From IMG/VR virus record IMGVR_UViG_3300032265_002598, positions 137,068 through 201,067 of that record: DNA of 64,000 nucleotides. One strand, written 5' to 3'. This document shows positions 2,886-58,793 of the stretch, one piece after another. Positions within the stretch are counted from its first letter, which is position 1; each line of letters begins with the position of its first letter. A program made the position numbers and the translations under genes. This DNA comes from a virus (lineage: Duplodnaviria > Caudoviricetes). The notes below the pieces were generated by a model. It ran no database searches and was not told the DNA's origin. It worked only from the letters and a program-made list of their open reading frames with translations.

Positions 2886-3901
2886 TTAATGCCCATTGTT
2901 TCCTTGACTTGTGCTAGTAAACTATCGTAGACAGCAGGATTATCTACTATATACTGTCTTAGTTTTTCTGTTCCTTGAAATTTAGGCTTGTCTGTAACTG
3001 ATGTTAGAGTATACCAAGCGCCACCCTTTTGTATAATACCAATATCAACTGCAAGCATGAGCAATTCCATTTGCTTATCTATGCCCTGACCATATCGAAT
3101 ATAGCTAGTAATAGTTCCGCCGGGAGCGCCTAATGCAGAGCACATTACTTGCCATTGAATTTCTTGACCAATTTGTTGACCATCTTCTGCTGATCCAATT
3201 TTCCAAGCGGTGTGGAACTTAGCTCTTAGTTTAATATCTGTTTGATAAGCAATAGCCTGACCACTCTTTTCTTTCCATTCAACATGACCAGTACCTGGAT
3301 TACCCATTAAGTGAGTAATACCAATAACAATATTTCTATTCACAGGAATAACATTCGCCACCTTCCTGCAAAACTTAGCCAATAGTTTAGCCCCATCCGC
3401 TCTTTGCATTTTGTTCATATCGCTAGTGATTTCTGTTTCAGTACATAGTGCAGAGTAGGAGTCTATGATAAGAACACATCCAGGAATTTCATTAATAATT
3501 CTCTCTCCAATCTGGAGATATTCTTCTGCGTGTAAAATCTTACCTTGCTGAGAACCTATAATATGAAATCTATCTAGATCTAATCCTGGAATTCCTTCTA
3601 GATCCCTTTTCTTTAATCGACCTTCAATGTTAAGGTAGTACACTTCTCTACCCTCTTTGAATCCCTGATAAGCATATTCGGGTCTTTGTGCTGTGGCAGC
3701 AAAGTCTAAAGAGGTCGTGGTCTTTCCACATTTCGGTTGTCCGGTTAAAATCATAAAACTTCCTTCTGGGACACCACCATTTAAAATAATGTCCAGAGAA
3801 GGGCTCACAGGAATTGTAATGAGTTTTTTGTCAACAACAGCACTTGCTGTGAGCATGATTTCATTACCGAAATTTTTAATTACGTCTTCTTTGAGACTCA
3901 T
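2876..3901 (-). CDS. recA: RecA/UvsX-like recombinase
   Basis: SPSLDIILNGGVPEG, Walker A GQPKCGKTT, Walker B LIIDSYSAL, KGGAWY C-terminal motif. Confidence 0.9.
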   Translation of the reverse strand: MSLKEDVIKNFGNEIMLTASAVVDKKLITIPVSPSLDIILNGGVPEGSFMILTGQPKCGKTTTSLDFAATAQRPEYAYQGFKEGREVYYLNIEGRLKKRDLEGIPGLDLDRFHIIGSQQGKILHAEEYLQIGERIINEIPGCVLIIDSYSALCTETEITSDMNKMQRADGAKLLAKFCRKVANVIPVNRNIVIGITHLMGNPGTGHVEWKEKSGQAIAYQTDIKLRAKFHTAWKIGSAEDGQQIGQEIQWQVMCSALGAPGGTITSYIRYGQGIDKQMELLMLAVDIGIIQKGGAWYTLTSVTDKPKFQGTEKLRQYIVDNPAVYDSLLAQVKETMGIKCK

Positions 3902-52608: not shown

Positions 52609-52883
52609 TAGGAGCGGTGAGAATCGAACTCACACTGGATGGATTTTCTTACCACTATAGTTTTCACTACCATTTCTGTTTGTGGTCTGGACTTTATCTT
52701 AACCATAACTTTCGTTTTAGGTTCCTGCCGTTAAGTCTCTACACCTTCTTAATATTTCTATTAAGCTTGGCTCGGTATTAGCAGTTAAGCCTTCACCGAA
52801 TTTGACAAGTTCTACATTAAAGATTTCTCTCTAAGCACTCAAATTGTATAAGTCCACTGTCTCTGCCGTTGGACTACGCTCCC
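52609..52883 (-). tRNA. trnL: tRNA-Leu(UAA) split by a group I intron (exon 1 52850..52883, exon 2 52609..52647)
   Basis: Spliced sequence GGGAGCG TA GTCCAACGGCAGAGAC A GTGGA CTTAAAA TCCAT CCAGT GTGAG TTCGATT CTCAC CGCTCCT A folds as a cloverleaf with A73; CCA not encoded. Confidence 0.92.
52648..52849 (-). mobile_element. Group I intron (IC3-like), 202 nt, no ORF
   Basis: Inserted after U34. P1 ACUU/GAGU with U.G at the splice site; P AAATTCGGTGAA, Q TAATACCGAGCCAAG, R GTAGAGACTTAACGG, S AAGATAAAGTCC; terminal G; GAAA-capped P2/P8/P9 helices. Confidence 0.92.
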
Positions 52884-52902: not shown

Positions 52903-52930
52903 ATCATAACGATTGGTTAGATTTTGTCTA
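52903..52930 (-). promoter_or_regulatory. sigma70-type promoter of tRNA-Leu
   Basis: TAGACA-N16-TATGAT, about 20 nt upstream of the tRNA. Confidence 0.6.
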
Positions 52931-52983: not shown

Positions 52984-53268
52984 TCAACCGTTAGAATGAG
53001 CGGCCTTTAGGCGGCGAACAGTCTCAGCCATAGCCTCGACATTATCCACAGTCTTAATGGGCTTTGCTCGTTCCATAGCGGGAAGTTCAATCCCCTTAAC
53101 AGTCAGAGCGGCCTTTGTACGAGCATAACGAGCCATCGTACTAGCAACCTTCTGACCCGTCTTTGACGCAATCTCAGCATAAGTCTTACTGGAAAAAACT
53201 GCCTCAAGGAACTGGTCATCACTGCAACGAACACGACTCTGCTTCTCAGTAGTAGTAACTTCAGCCAT
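52984..53268 (-). CDS. Small putative DNA-binding (HTH-like) protein
   Basis: TYAEIASKTGQKVASTMARY; GGAGG RBS; likely start MAEVTT at 53268. Confidence 0.6.
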   Translation of the reverse strand: MAEVTTTEKQSRVRCSDDQFLEAVFSSKTYAEIASKTGQKVASTMARYARTKAALTVKGIELPAMERAKPIKTVDNVEAMAETVRRLKAAHSNG

Positions 53269-53328
53269 AATAAAATCCTCCAAATTATTAACCAATCTTA
53301 CAAACGAGGCTCAGTCGAACGACTGATC

Positions 53329-53946
53329 TTACCTCGCGTTGTTCCTTCGATTATACAGTATGGTATCGTCAATGTCAATAGGCGAACTTGAAATTTTTTT
53401 CGTTCTCGCCAGAAATTGTTGTTGAACGTCTTTAAAACTCCAAGGAGTACCAAACTCTACCCCATCTCTTTTATTATCGACTCCTACATCAAGCGTGAGA
53501 CTGCCAGAAATAACGTCCTCACGATGAAGTCTGCCATGAACATGACCATAGAGCATCCAGCTTTTCCTATAACTACCTGACCAACTTCTCATAGGATAAT
53601 GACACATAAATATTTTTTGATTGATATACAGAATCATTTTCTGATCAGAGACACTAGAAAATCCACTAGTGAATTTAGTTGGCTCATCATGATTACCAAG
53701 AATAACGTGAACATTTTCACAAGCTATTCTTTCTCTATAAGATAGAGCAGTGCCGCCTTTATGGCAGAAATCTCCTAGAACGTAAAGAATGTCATTTTTT
53801 CCAACTGTTTCGTTTATGGAAGAAATAATCTTTTCGTCCATTTCTTCACCAGTAGTGAACGGACGATTACAATATCCTATAATATTTCGATGTCCAAGAT
53901 GAAGATCAGCAGTAAAAAATACTTTCTGACCGACTATCTTATCCAT
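53329..53946 (-). CDS. Calcineurin-like metallophosphoesterase
   Basis: TADLHLGH, LGDF, LGNHD, CHYP, GHVH. Confidence 0.9.
   Translation of the reverse strand: MDKIVGQKVFFTADLHLGHRNIIGYCNRPFTTGEEMDEKIISSINETVGKNDILYVLGDFCHKGGTALSYRERIACENVHVILGNHDEPTKFTSGFSSVSDQKMILYINQKIFMCHYPMRSWSGSYRKSWMLYGHVHGRLHREDVISGSLTLDVGVDNKRDGVEFGTPWSFKDVQQQFLARTKKISSSPIDIDDTILYNRRNNAR
53350..53378 (-). promoter_or_regulatory. sigma70-type promoter
   Basis: Perfect TTGACA-N17-TATAAT with ACGAT in the spacer. Confidence 0.85.
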
Positions 53947-55120: not shown

Positions 55121-55831
55121 TTAGTTCTCCAGAACATAACTCCAGTAACGACTATCTTCTTTCTTTTGCAGATCGTCCCAATAGATTGATCGGGCAACAT
55201 ATGATGGAACTTTAAGCTTTCCACAATTTACCATCCAGTGACGCTCCATCTTTTTATAAATCTCTGAGCCAGACTTACTCTTATTATACTTTAGAGCCTC
55301 AACATCGTAAAGCCTAAGTTGATGAATATCTCCACACAGCACCCTTGCCTCATTAGGGTGGATCATCTCAAGAGCAAAGCTAATTTTAGCCAACCCAATT
55401 CCACTAATCTTATTAAGGATACTGTCTCGTTTCTTAACATGATACTTCTTAGTAGTCAAATAAAAGTCTTTAGGATTAGCCCAAAACTTGGTACTAAAAT
55501 CCCAGATATAAGTGGTGCGATTATTGTGTAGACCGACGCCACTCTTATGAAGTTTTTCCAAAAGAATTTCTTTGCTATCTACCCATTCGCTAAAATTCTT
55601 AATAGCATTATATCCTTTGACATTACCTTGCCAAGTGGTGTGAACTGAGCAATAGGCAAAAAGATAGCGACGAAAAATATCTTCATCAGTCTTGGGACGA
55701 ACAGTTTCCCAATAATCTTTATAAGCAACAACCTTGTCCTTGGGAAAATTCTTAAAAAATTCATCAGCCTTGCTGGTACTCATAACAACAGGCTTTTTTT
55801 CAATTCGATCTTGCTGGATTAGGTCAGACAT
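55121..55831 (-). CDS. HhH-GPD-superfamily DNA glycosylase/AP lyase (Ogg/EndoIII-like)
   Basis: HhH ISGIGLAKISFAL followed by LCGDIHQLR (catalytic Asp). Likely start is MSDLIQQ at 55831. Confidence 0.72.
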   Translation of the reverse strand: MSDLIQQDRIEKKPVVMSTSKADEFFKNFPKDKVVAYKDYWETVRPKTDEDIFRRYLFAYCSVHTTWQGNVKGYNAIKNFSEWVDSKEILLEKLHKSGVGLHNNRTTYIWDFSTKFWANPKDFYLTTKKYHVKKRDSILNKISGIGLAKISFALEMIHPNEARVLCGDIHQLRLYDVEALKYNKSKSGSEIYKKMERHWMVNCGKLKVPSYVARSIYWDDLQKKEDSRYWSYVLEN

Positions 55832-55867
55832 TTCAACTCCAAGTTTGTTTCCAAAGTGTATGCTGTG

Positions 55868-55896
55868 ATTGTACACTAGTCCTATCGTCTTGTCAA
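55868..55896 (-). promoter_or_regulatory. sigma70-type promoter of the glycosylase gene
   Basis: TTGACA-N17-TACAAT with TG extension and ACGAT in the spacer. Confidence 0.8.
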
Positions 55897-56390: not shown

Positions 56391-57689
56391 TCAAATATCC
56401 CTCTCATCCCCATGCAAAATCTTAAATGTCGGAAATCTTAGGCTAATACCACCCTTTTCATTTTCTGTTTCCTCAAAGTATTGAACGGTAATTTGCTTTC
56501 CAAGAATTTTCTTAGGGTTCTTATAAAACTCCTGTCTTTGATCAATACTAAAACCAGAACCCACCCTGACAGTATGACCCTTATGTTGAATCATAACACA
56601 ACTCAACATAATCTCTTCACACTCTGCACCATCTTTAACATAGCGGAACGGCCCCATTTCAGTATCTAGAACTTCATATTCGTCATCAAAGAATGATTTA
56701 TATTTGAGAAGGTCTTTTGATCGCTTACCCTTATAAGGAGTATCTGCACGAAGCATAAGTCCCTCCCAACCATTCTGAGTAGATTCTTTGACAAATTCTT
56801 GAAAATGGTTTTCGTCCTTAATCAAAGACTGACCCAATAGTGTTAGACATGGACATTCATTCTTTTTCATAACTTCTGTAAGATTCTTGAGTCTGATACC
56901 AAAGGGTCTATTATATTCTCCTTTCTGACTATAAAATTCATCATGAGTAATCATATCAAAAATCTTATAGGAAGGATTAGGAATAGTATGATCCTTCTTG
57001 CGAAGTTCCTTCATTACTCCTTGAAAATCCTCATTACCATCTTCATCAACAAGACAAAGTTCTCCATCAAGAACTACATTAGTAAGTCCCAAAGCTTTAA
57101 TCCCACCGCTAACAACGTCAAGAGTATCAAAGTTTTTTCCCGTGCGGGAATAAAAGGTAGTATTACCATTACTGTCAACAATAGCAATACATCTAGCACC
57201 GTCGATCTTCCTGCTAACATACCATCCATCCTTCCAGTCTACAATTTTAGGAACATACTTGTCCGCTAATGCAACGCTAAATGTTGGAATGTGATCTGGA
57301 ATAGCCTTATTGATTAACTTATCTCCAGCACGGGTTTTCAAGTCTTTATCAATGATGCAGTGAATTAGTTGTTCGTGTCCATTATTGTCAATAAAAGTAT
57401 TAACTGCTCCAATAGCATCGTGTCCTGTAATTTCTCTATTCTTCAAAGAATCCAGCAAATCAAAAATAGTTTTAAAAGATTGTCCTCTGAGAGAGGATTT
57501 CTTTTTGAGATTATCGCTGGTCACATTATACTGCCAAAGAGGATGATAAGTATAGAGCAAAATCTTTTTGATAAAATCTGCTCCAGCCTGATTGGAAGAG
57601 GTATAATCCTCAATAATTCCAACTTTATCAAGTGTACTACTAGTTGCTTTCAGATCACGAACAAAACCATTAAGATGCTCAAATGACAT
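56391..57689 (-). CDS. lig: ATP-dependent DNA ligase
   Basis: Motif I KIDGAR, LDGEL, YKIFD, EGLMLR, KRSKDLLKYK, VGSGF, LRFP. Likely start is MSFEHL at 57689. Confidence 0.93.
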   Translation of the reverse strand: MSFEHLNGFVRDLKATSSTLDKVGIIEDYTSSNQAGADFIKKILLYTYHPLWQYNVTSDNLKKKSSLRGQSFKTIFDLLDSLKNREITGHDAIGAVNTFIDNNGHEQLIHCIIDKDLKTRAGDKLINKAIPDHIPTFSVALADKYVPKIVDWKDGWYVSRKIDGARCIAIVDSNGNTTFYSRTGKNFDTLDVVSGGIKALGLTNVVLDGELCLVDEDGNEDFQGVMKELRKKDHTIPNPSYKIFDMITHDEFYSQKGEYNRPFGIRLKNLTEVMKKNECPCLTLLGQSLIKDENHFQEFVKESTQNGWEGLMLRADTPYKGKRSKDLLKYKSFFDDEYEVLDTEMGPFRYVKDGAECEEIMLSCVMIQHKGHTVRVGSGFSIDQRQEFYKNPKKILGKQITVQYFEETENEKGGISLRFPTFKILHGDERDI

Positions 57690-57714
57690 TTCCAATTTCT
57701 CCTGTGTTTTCCCA

Positions 57715-57743
57715 AGTATAGCATACGGTAATGCTGTTGTCAA
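57715..57743 (-). promoter_or_regulatory. sigma70-type promoter of the ligase gene
   Basis: TTGACA-N17-TATACT; the track's TTG start is the -35 box. Confidence 0.8.
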
Positions 57744-58162
57744 GCATCATTTCGTCTTTTCTCTAGCAAATGGTTTAAAGAAAAAACCACGCCTTGAATA
57801 ATGTGATTTAGCACAGCTTGATCTTCAACTTTACTTCTTACTGATAAGTATTTCAAAGCAGCAACAATACCTTCTAAATTATCTCCTAATTTTCCTATCC
57901 CTATATTACAAGTTTCACATAACCATCCCCTAAAGGTATGATAAACATGGTCATGATCTAGGTGCCATTTATCTGGGCTACAAAAACAACACTCACAACC
58001 CTCTGGTTTTATTGGTGCCTTTTTTCTTAGCTTATTTCTAATCTTAGTATGTTTCTTCACACACTTTCTGCATCTACTGTCCAGATTGTCTTTATGTCCA
58101 ATATGTCTAGCAAAAGACTTGGCATTTTTTCTTTTCCCACAGTATATGCAAATCTTTCTCAT
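57740..58162 (-). CDS. Endonuclease VII-domain protein
   Basis: CECC...LDHDH...FRGWLCETCN.GIG.LGDN....ALKYL. Confidence 0.85.
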   Translation of the reverse strand: MRKICIYCGKRKNAKSFARHIGHKDNLDSRCRKCVKKHTKIRNKLRKKAPIKPEGCECCFCSPDKWHLDHDHVYHTFRGWLCETCNIGIGKLGDNLEGIVAALKYLSVRSKVEDQAVLNHIIQGVVFSLNHLLEKRRNDA

Positions 58163-58170
58163 AATATAAG

Positions 58171-58519
58171 TGGACTAGGGCAGAGTCGAACTGCCGTCCA
58201 GAATAAACATCAATATAAACTTCTACATCGTTAGTTGGTTGTTATCACACTACCAACAAAGCTATCAGAATTATCTGCGTCAGATTGAGTACAATCATCA
58301 GTCCCATTTATGTCTGGTAGGACTACCATATCCGAATATCGGAGTCAGCATGATTTGGTAATAAGGCTCATGCCGCCCCACTCATTACCTAATTAATTAG
58401 GCAGCGAGAGCAAGAGATGTCTTGCCAATTAACAATTTGAATACCTTTTATACTGGCCCAGTATTCAACCAGTCGATGCGATCTATACCTAGATTACCTG
58501 TCGATACCTTTACTAGCCC
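58171..58519 (-). ncRNA. ssrA: tmRNA (one-piece), tag (A)GKTSLALAA
   Basis: Acceptor GGGCTAG/CTAGTCC-A with G3.U70; T arm GGCAG-TTCGACT-CTGCC; tag ORF GGC AAG ACA TCT CTT GCT CTC GCT GCC TAA at 58426..58397; 349 nt. Confidence 0.93.
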
Positions 58520-58701: not shown

Positions 58702-58717
58702 ATTAAATCCTTTTAAG

Positions 58718-58793
58718 TAGGGCGTGTCTGAGTCGAACAGACCTATGAACACCTTATAAGAGTGTCGGATGCAACCGGCTTACCTTACGCCCC
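58718..58793 (-). tRNA. trnI: tRNA-Ile(UAU)
   Basis: GGGGCGT/ACGCCCT acceptor, ACACT-CTTATAA-GGTGT anticodon arm, GTCTG-TTCGACT-CAGAC T arm, A73. Confidence 0.88.

Follow-up and report, generated by a model that had tools for sequence, protein, structure and literature searches.

What does a group I intron do in the anticodon of a phage transfer RNA (tRNA) gene, and does it serve the phage or itself? The locus that raises this question belongs to IMG/VR virus record IMGVR_UViG_3300032265_002598, a complete phage record from a freshwater sample that is 201,067 bp long, has a G+C content of 34% and carries terminal repeats, and whose final 64 kb (positions 137,068 to 201,067) form the stretch analysed here, hereafter the window. 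A preliminary description placed a 202-nucleotide (nt) group I intron in a tRNA-Leu(UAA) gene at 52609–52883, between U34 and A35; ARAGORN and the intronless alleles of relatives confirm the coordinates, the length and the insertion point exactly, and the gene lies on the minus strand, which the description left unstated. The explanation held here with considerable confidence is that of a working phage tRNA gene interrupted by a group I intron of the 'Leu.3Ug' family, predicted to splice itself and to be selfish and mobile among phages; the splicing, the charging of the tRNA and the target of an HNH endonuclease found in relatives are read from sequence comparison.

The split gene and the fold of its intron

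The gene is not called by ARAGORN in default mode. With introns allowed, the program reports tRNA-Leu(taa) i(35,202), with an intron after U34, and together with inspection of the sequence this outlines a split tRNA(UAA) gene at 52883–52609 (minus strand, as are all parts of the gene and intron given below). The 34-nt 5' exon (52883–52850) ends in GGACUU and contains the 5' strand of the acceptor stem, the D arm, the 5' strand of the anticodon stem, and C32, U33 and U34; its D arm has a 3-bp stem with C13.A22 and a loop bearing A14, A15, G18, G19 and A20a. The 39-nt 3' exon (52647–52609) begins with AAAAUCC and supplies A35, A36, A37 and A38, the 3' strand of the anticodon stem, a 5-nt variable loop (CCAGU, including U48), the T arm, the 3' strand of the acceptor stem and A73. 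Between the exons, at 52849–52648, lies the 202-nt intron, which contains no open reading frame (ORF) and is delimited by Rfam, ARAGORN, covariation and intronless alleles; it starts with AUACAA, its first A at 52849, and ends with GGUAAG, its terminal G at 52648. The insertion point between U34 and A35 of the UAA anticodon (CUU/AAAA) is confirmed by the syntenic intronless alleles L074, L100 and L129, in which the two exon blocks abut exactly there, so that the splice junction is fixed independently of RNA data.

Several observations bear on the assignment to group I. First, Rfam model RF00028 (Intron_gpI) matches 52859–52666(-) at 62.4 bits (E 1.9e-13) over its full length (model positions 1–253), above the gathering cut-off of 50 bits, and this match, the check proposed in the preliminary description, is the sole one in the 64-kb window and in the whole 201-kb genome. 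Second, the helices listed in that description (P1–P4 and P6–P9) and the terminal G can all be placed. P1 pairs ACUUA (52853–52849) with UGAGU (52841–52837), U34 (52850) forming a U.G wobble at the 5' splice site, and UUU at 52843–52841, which adjoins the guide sequence, may form a candidate P10 with the AAA that opens the 3' exon. P2 (52834–52817), seven base pairs capped by a GAAA loop, is followed by P3 (CUUGUC/GGCAGG, 52809–52804 with 52729–52724), P4 (UUCGGU/ACCGAG, 52800–52795 with 52776–52771), P5 (52791–52789 with 52782–52780), P6 (52770–52769 with 52745–52744) and P6a (52765–52759 with 52754–52748). P7 (GACU/AGUC, 52737–52734 with 52693–52690) forms the P3-P7 pseudoknot, P8 (52723–52701) is a hairpin with a GAAA loop, and the intron closes with a three-way junction (52685–52648) composed of P9 (CCAC/GUGG), P9a (CA-GAAA-UG) and P9b (UAGU-GAAA-ACUA), after which comes UAAG with the terminal G. 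The short P2, the lack of P5abc and the P9 junction are features compatible with subgroup IC3, as judged from the helix plan and not by a subgroup classifier.

Third, most of these helices covary in an alignment of 24 distinct natural intron variants, to which the following counts refer. RNAalifold independently recovers P2, P3, P4, P5, P6, P8 and P9, and both-side changes are present in 30 of 59 pairs. P3, P5, P6, P8 and P9 each contain pairs changed on both sides; all seven pairs of P2 are so changed in some variants, P6a and P9b covary, P4 shows one compensatory change, and the third pair of P9 is split evenly between C-G and U-A, 12 sequences each. Covariation accordingly backs P2–P6, P8 and P9, and the U.G wobble of P1 and the terminal G are invariant in 24 of 24 variants. 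RNAalifold cannot represent the P3-P7 pseudoknot. It also pairs the exon end GGACUUAU with AUAAAGUCC, which is rejected as an artefact because GACU occurs in the exon as well as in the 5' strand of P7, and neither partner varies.

Two results count against the assignment. P1 and P7 are themselves invariant, so covariation says little on either; the sole exception in P7, L037, has GAGU/AUUC and keeps the pairing. In addition, a single-sequence fold recovers most helices, yet just modestly beats shuffled sequences (z -1.7). Weighed with the Rfam match and the covarying helices, the sequence evidence identifies the element as a genuine group I intron, and the assignment of its catalytic class is correct.

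Another conceivable source of the locus is chimeric assembly or a fragment of host DNA, the objection that the preliminary description had raised against itself. It is contradicted by the complete 201-kb phage record with its terminal repeats and by synteny: the same genes flank the locus in many independent metagenome assemblies, with introns of 97–99% identity, which rules out an assembly chimera. Moreover, 25 of 25 sampled bacterial introns in tRNA-Leu(UAA) genes interrupt class II bodies, those with a long variable arm, and the body in the window is class I. The probability left to an origin in assembly or in host DNA is negligible.

The tRNA body and its probable leucine identity

Bacterial tRNA-Leu is class II. 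The spliced product of the window gene would be a tRNA of 73 nt with a variable loop of 5 nt, a D stem of 3 bp including C13.A22, a G1.U72 terminal pair, A73 and no encoded CCA; it lacks the long variable arm that defines class II. The preliminary description missed this class I shape; the UAA anticodon and the known identity bases for leucyl-tRNA synthetase (LeuRS) are kept. Its claim of a perfect anticodon arm is borne out in part, in that joining the exons restores the arm, in which a G27.U43 wobble remains. The full E. coli leucine identity set is present in the window tRNA (A73, U8-A14, A15-U48, G18G19 and A20a), and this set excludes both the anticodon and the long arm (Giege and Eriani 2023, PMC9976931).

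Both the class I body and G1.U72 are atypical of tRNA-Leu and weigh against reading the product as a leucine tRNA. Together with the short variable loop, the 3-bp D stem and the absence of an encoded CCA, they could instead mark a dead gene whose precursor does not splice, a tRNA for another amino acid, or a decoy. Such a gene would be hard to reconcile with an intron whose core is invariant and whose helices covary, and the tRNA body points the same way. In a survey of 83 distinct class I relatives, 98–100% of the cloverleaf pairs are retained and compensatory changes are numerous; all 83 have U8, A14, A15 and U48 unchanged and 82 have A73, the search pattern having left these five positions free. 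The same class I body is annotated as tRNA-Leu in cultured phages of Prochlorococcus, Lactobacillus, Bacillus, Streptomyces and others. A precedent exists in human mitochondrial tRNA-Leu(UUR), which has a UAA anticodon, A14 and A73 and no long variable arm, and is nonetheless charged (PMC9976931). The phage tRNA differs from it in needing to be charged by a bacterial LeuRS and in having the D arm of a bacterial-type tRNA-Leu (3-bp stem, A15-U48, G18G19, A20a) and, usually, G1.U72. A dead or non-leucine gene is thus a very improbable explanation, and the product is most likely an arm-less yet genuine leucine tRNA, since its stems are conserved, the identity bases for LeuRS are kept and the annotations in cultured phages agree; its charging would follow from these features.

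The predicted tRNA suits the coding of the phage. Across 113 long ORFs, UUA makes up 43% and UUG 12% of leucine codons, together 55%, and the other tRNAs of the phage also fit its A-ending codons. One of these is a 77-nt tRNA-Ile(UAU) at 58717–58793(-), immediately upstream of a transfer-messenger RNA (tmRNA), that reads AUA, 31% of the isoleucine codons of the phage. Outside the window, ARAGORN reports a class II tRNA-Ser with anticodon ACU (genome coordinates G000:C1:20417-20503); an unmodified A34 is rare among bacterial-type tRNAs. A separate observation concerns the first pair of the acceptor stem: G1.U72 (window positions 52883 and 52610) is found in 68 of the 83 distinct phage class I tRNA-Leu(UAA) genes (loci L052–L171), an unusual conservation for a weak terminal pair.

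Distribution in phages and relation to cellular introns

A survey of phage tRNA genes, as suggested in the preliminary description, shows that the window is one case among many. A search pattern made of the exon end and the P1 guide matched 46 IMG/VR contigs, in 43 of which ARAGORN calls an intron-split tRNA-Leu(taa) with an intron of 196–278 nt. Another, L049, is reported as 'tRNA-Tyr(ata)' and was excluded from the set; it looks like a mis-split Leu(UAA) and would be the forty-fourth copy. Two further phages have the same intron-split gene with the same insertion site: Atu_ph07, a cultured jumbo phage of Agrobacterium, and LR756501, whose genome measures 735 kb. Phage introns of this kind occupy tRNA bodies of both class I (73–75 nt) and class II (83–89 nt). 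In Atu_ph07 (L002, MF403008.1, ~112932–113210), a cultivable carrier of the intron, a class II tRNA-Leu(UAA) is split by a 278-nt intron; this gene is absent from the GenBank annotation, and a coding sequence for a 'hypothetical protein' (AUZ94936.1) overlaps its 3' part.

Alleles without the intron are the majority. A pattern for the spliced junction finds the same kind of tRNA, uninterrupted, in at least 120 viral contigs. The exons of one of these, L074, are identical to those of the intron-bearing L008 and L027 and one base off those of the window. Because such intronless alleles are syntenic with intron-bearing ones, the intron must have been gained or lost within this group of phages.

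The insertion site is the one occupied by the intron of cyanobacterial and plastid trnL(UAA), as the preliminary description had recognised; this site is designated 'Leu.3Ug', and the classical bacterial tRNA introns are all listed as IC3 (Williams 2020). The bacterial and plastid introns resemble the window intron in the CUU/AAAA insertion point, the U.G at the 5' splice site, the terminal G, the lack of an ORF and the entire helix plan, including the P9 three-way junction. Phage and bacterial tRNA introns also have in common an exact 23-base core signature, GAGCCAAG...GAAGGUGYAGAGACU, which occurs at no fewer than 120 loci in bacteria of many phyla; among the matches listed, 92 lie inside tRNA genes (Leu, Arg, Met, Gln, Asn and others). 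The phage intron differs from its bacterial counterparts in residing in a phage and not a cellular genome and, apart from the class of the interrupted body, in its length, 202 nt in the window versus 218–336 nt in 25 sampled bacterial introns.

The sequences themselves are well separated. The window intron shares 71–79% of positions with the sampled bacterial introns, and the best match among those sampled, a chromosomal tRNA-Leu(UAA) intron of Bacteroidia, agrees at 160 of 202 positions. No near-identical bacterial copy was found in 401 Bacteroidota genomes, 12 of which have matches, all of 66–78% identity. On a quick maximum-likelihood tree, 89 of 91 sampled bacterial introns fall on one branch (support 89), and the phage copies cluster apart, outside it. 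The bacterial matches listed allow no donor and no direction of transfer between phage and cell to be inferred. The proposal in the preliminary description that phages act as a vector for tRNA introns is therefore upheld for spread among phages (see below) and not for transfer between phages and bacteria.

According to a 2014 review, all phage introns known to date lay in protein-coding genes, despite the many tRNA genes that phages carry (Hausner 2014, PMC3984707), which agrees with the contrast drawn in the preliminary description. Introns such as those of T4 td, nrdB and nrdD, the SPO1 DNA polymerase gene, Twort and S-PM2 psbA resemble the window intron in occurring in large lytic-type phages, in belonging to a self-splicing class and in being polymorphic among relatives; the window intron differs in sitting in a tRNA gene and in having no intron-encoded endonuclease. 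A study of Lak megaphages states that phage tRNA introns were until then unreported, and describes its own as short and 'enigmatic', giving them no class (Devoto et al. 2019, PMC6784885). Like the window intron, those of Lak lie within phage tRNA genes and are overlooked by standard bacterial tRNA finders; unlike them, the window intron can be classified, and by sequence is a full group I ribozyme. The literature searched, which covered few subscription journals, yielded no account of a phage tRNA gene with a group I intron. What is new here is a well-known intron family in a niche not described before, phage tRNA genes, including that of an arm-less tRNA-Leu; the splicing mechanism itself is not new.

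Related sequences also occur in phage protein genes. The P9 end of the intron matches introns in replicative helicase genes of crAss-like phages at 85–93% over ~55 nt (L003, cr111_1; L004, Kolpuevirus), where the helicase genes with the matching intron also carry a GIY-YIG endonuclease ORF, and a 160-nt match to the core is found in the capsid gene of Pelagibacter phage HTVC120P. These matches place the same intron lineage in both protein and tRNA genes of phages.

Mobility, neighbouring genes and significance

Comparisons among phages provide good support for spread of the intron from phage to phage, because it is present or absent at syntenic loci, does not track the type of tRNA body, and was exchanged as part of a cassette between nearly identical flanks. 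On the tree, introns from the two classes of body are intermingled: L026 groups with L045 (support 100), and L028 and L031 with L012 and L022 (support 95). The cassette swap is seen in L026 and L074, whose flanks are 96.5% identical over 5.4 kb and whose whole tRNA cassettes differ, L026 having an 83-nt body with the intron and L074 a class I body without it. Alignment of L026:1–470 with L074:11610–11932 shows the replaced segment to be exactly the tRNA-Leu gene plus ~40 nt downstream.

These comparisons also bear on whether the intron serves its phage. The preliminary description suggested that it may shield the tRNA precursor from anticodon nucleases or gate the supply of tRNA by its splicing, for example in response to GTP, Mg or the stage of infection. 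The tRNA is probably important to a phage in which it would read more than half of the leucine codons, the intron persists in the lineage of the window with no endonuclease gene beside it, and defences that target tRNAs do exist; Septu, for one, is reported to cut the variable loop of tRNA-Tyr (PMC13096335). Neither form of benefit is supported by the data. The majority of alleles do without the intron, including a syntenic one with identical exons, and its presence differs even between phages with 96.5%-identical flanks; the mature anticodon loop is the same as that of intronless alleles and would be equally exposed to nucleases; and no regulatory element is seen. A benefit of this kind to the phage is accordingly judged distinctly unlikely.

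Clustering of the ORFs near intron-bearing loci brought out a free-standing HNH gene (phrog_10822, E 1.7e-46; Pfam HNH matches are weak) beside the intron-bearing tRNA genes of relatives. It is convergent with the tRNA gene and abuts its 3' end at 20 of 44 intron-bearing loci, lies just upstream at 1 more, and abuts none of 120 intronless loci (of the at least 120 that exist); the tRNA bodies it accompanies are of at least five kinds. Counted over the relatives, with the window set aside, 21 of 43 intron-bearing loci have the gene; in L047, for example, it lies at 3311–3763(-). In collaborative homing, an ORF-less intron and a free-standing endonuclease target one and the same site (Hausner 2014, PMC3984707). 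As that review relates, F-CphI and the psbA intron of cyanophage S-PM2 are a case of this kind (Zeng et al. 2009; Bonocora and Shub 2009; both via PMC3984707). The likeness lies in the adjacency and co-occurrence of an ORF-less intron and a free-standing HNH gene in the relatives and in the lack of the HNH gene at intronless alleles; the differences are that the window has the intron without the HNH gene and that the presumed target of cleavage is a tRNA gene. We infer that the association of intron and HNH gene fits collaborative homing.

Several points weigh on the other side. The pattern is drawn from the relatives and not from the window. The contigs behind the HNH counts are related and do not amount to independent events; at a few loci the flank is too short for scoring. 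No endonuclease gene was found by the tRNA gene of the window, either with Pfam and PHROGs on the flanking ORFs or by tblastn with the HNH proteins of the relatives, which gives no match anywhere in the 201-kb genome even at E 10. The intron is likewise present without an adjoining HNH gene in the closest relatives of the window (L008, L039, L027, L038 and L051); the HNH gene is present in L047 and L018, which have introns of 97% identity. The window intron thus looks like a remnant left after loss of its endonuclease partner, or one acquired without it.

The same observations could be taken to mean that the intron confers immunity, by splitting the site of an HNH enzyme that cuts tRNA-Leu genes and is brought in by co-infecting relatives, so that phages with the intron would come through contests of superinfection. 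Retention of the intron even after loss of the HNH gene would then be accounted for, and such a role would be in keeping with the confinement of the HNH gene to the neighbourhood of intron-bearing loci, with an insertion-site sequence, GGACUUAAAAUCC, common to class I and class II bodies, with the swapping of whole tRNA cassettes between near-identical phages, and with collaborative homing as a precedent (Hausner 2014, PMC3984707). It overlaps with the preferred explanation, that of a selfish and mobile intron, and differs from it just in the beneficiary; the target of the HNH enzyme is putative, and the window itself provides no test. An immunity role is considered unlikely, if somewhat less so than a benefit to the tRNA or its supply.

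The surroundings of the tRNA gene offer a candidate for its expression. A promoter-like sequence, TAGACA-16-TATGAT, at 52930–52903(-), matches the consensus at 10 of 12 positions and ends 20 nt upstream of the 5' end of the tRNA. By itself the match lacks significance, with 4 such sites found against 2.9 expected; it is conserved in position in close relatives, and in the more distant L007 and L012 the corresponding position is occupied by TTGACA-17-TATAAT or TATGAT. A weak sigma-70-type promoter belonging to the tRNA gene, as claimed in the preliminary description, is a plausible prediction. A 69-codon ORF with a ribosome-binding site begins ~20 nt past the tRNA and may be co-transcribed with it.

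Further upstream, a perfect consensus sigma-70 promoter (TTGACA-17-TATAAT, 53350–53378(-)) precedes a 103-codon ORF (52987–53295) that has a weak helix-turn-helix (Sigma70_r4-like) match. Genes for a metallophosphatase (53332–53946(-)), an Ogg-type DNA glycosylase (55124–55876(-)) and an ATP-dependent DNA ligase (56394–57743(-)) lie upstream of the tRNA gene on the same strand, and the order ligase, glycosylase, metallophosphatase is conserved in relatives. The phage tmRNA (Rfam, 84 bits) is located at 58168–58519(-), with GKTSLALAA as its tag. It is followed after 6 nt, likewise on the minus strand, by the start of an endonuclease VII-like gene (57743–58162(-); PF02945, E 2e-10; phrog_2633), and this nuclease gene next to a tmRNA recalls the HNH-tRNA pairs of the relatives.

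The preferred explanation can be laid out as a sequence of predicted steps. Transcription would probably start from the weak sigma-70-type promoter, and the 5' exon end ACUU would pair with the guide in the intron to form P1, with its U34.G wobble. Free guanosine would attack at the U34.G site, after which the terminal G (52648) would occupy the guanosine-binding site, and the exons, kept together by P10 and the anticodon stem, would be ligated to restore the loop CUUAAAA. RNase P and CCA addition would complete the 73-nt tRNA. LeuRS would then most likely charge it with leucine, the long arm being dispensable for the bacterial enzyme, and the tRNA would read UUA and UUG. The intron is most likely a selfish passenger that must splice for the tRNA to be supplied, and that would spread among phage tRNA-Leu(UAA) genes by recombination during co-infection; in many relatives it appears to travel with the free-standing HNH gene that abuts the tRNA, in the manner of collaborative homing.

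A broader reading would go further. The introns of large phages would form a clade of their own, intron-plus-HNH cassettes would overwrite the tRNA-Leu genes of rivals together with their entire tRNA bodies, phages would be the vehicle, long sought, behind the patchy distribution of the intron among bacterial phyla, and the arm-less tRNA would be a design particular to phages that evades host nucleases directed at class II tRNAs. Taken as a whole this is speculative and unlikely.

The classical tRNA-Leu(UAA) intron is now seen in a complete phage genome and is common in phages, with at least 44 viral contigs, Atu_ph07 and LR756501 as carriers. Standard tRNA finders miss such genes, so that phage tRNA sets, and arguments from codon usage that rely on them, are incomplete. 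At 196–202 nt, the shorter introns are among the smallest natural group I ribozymes, with many natural variants at hand. Alleles with and without the intron, and with or without the HNH gene, form a natural series in which the spread of an ORF-less intron can be studied. The same series allows an old question about trnL to be asked anew, namely whether phages carry tRNA introns between bacteria.

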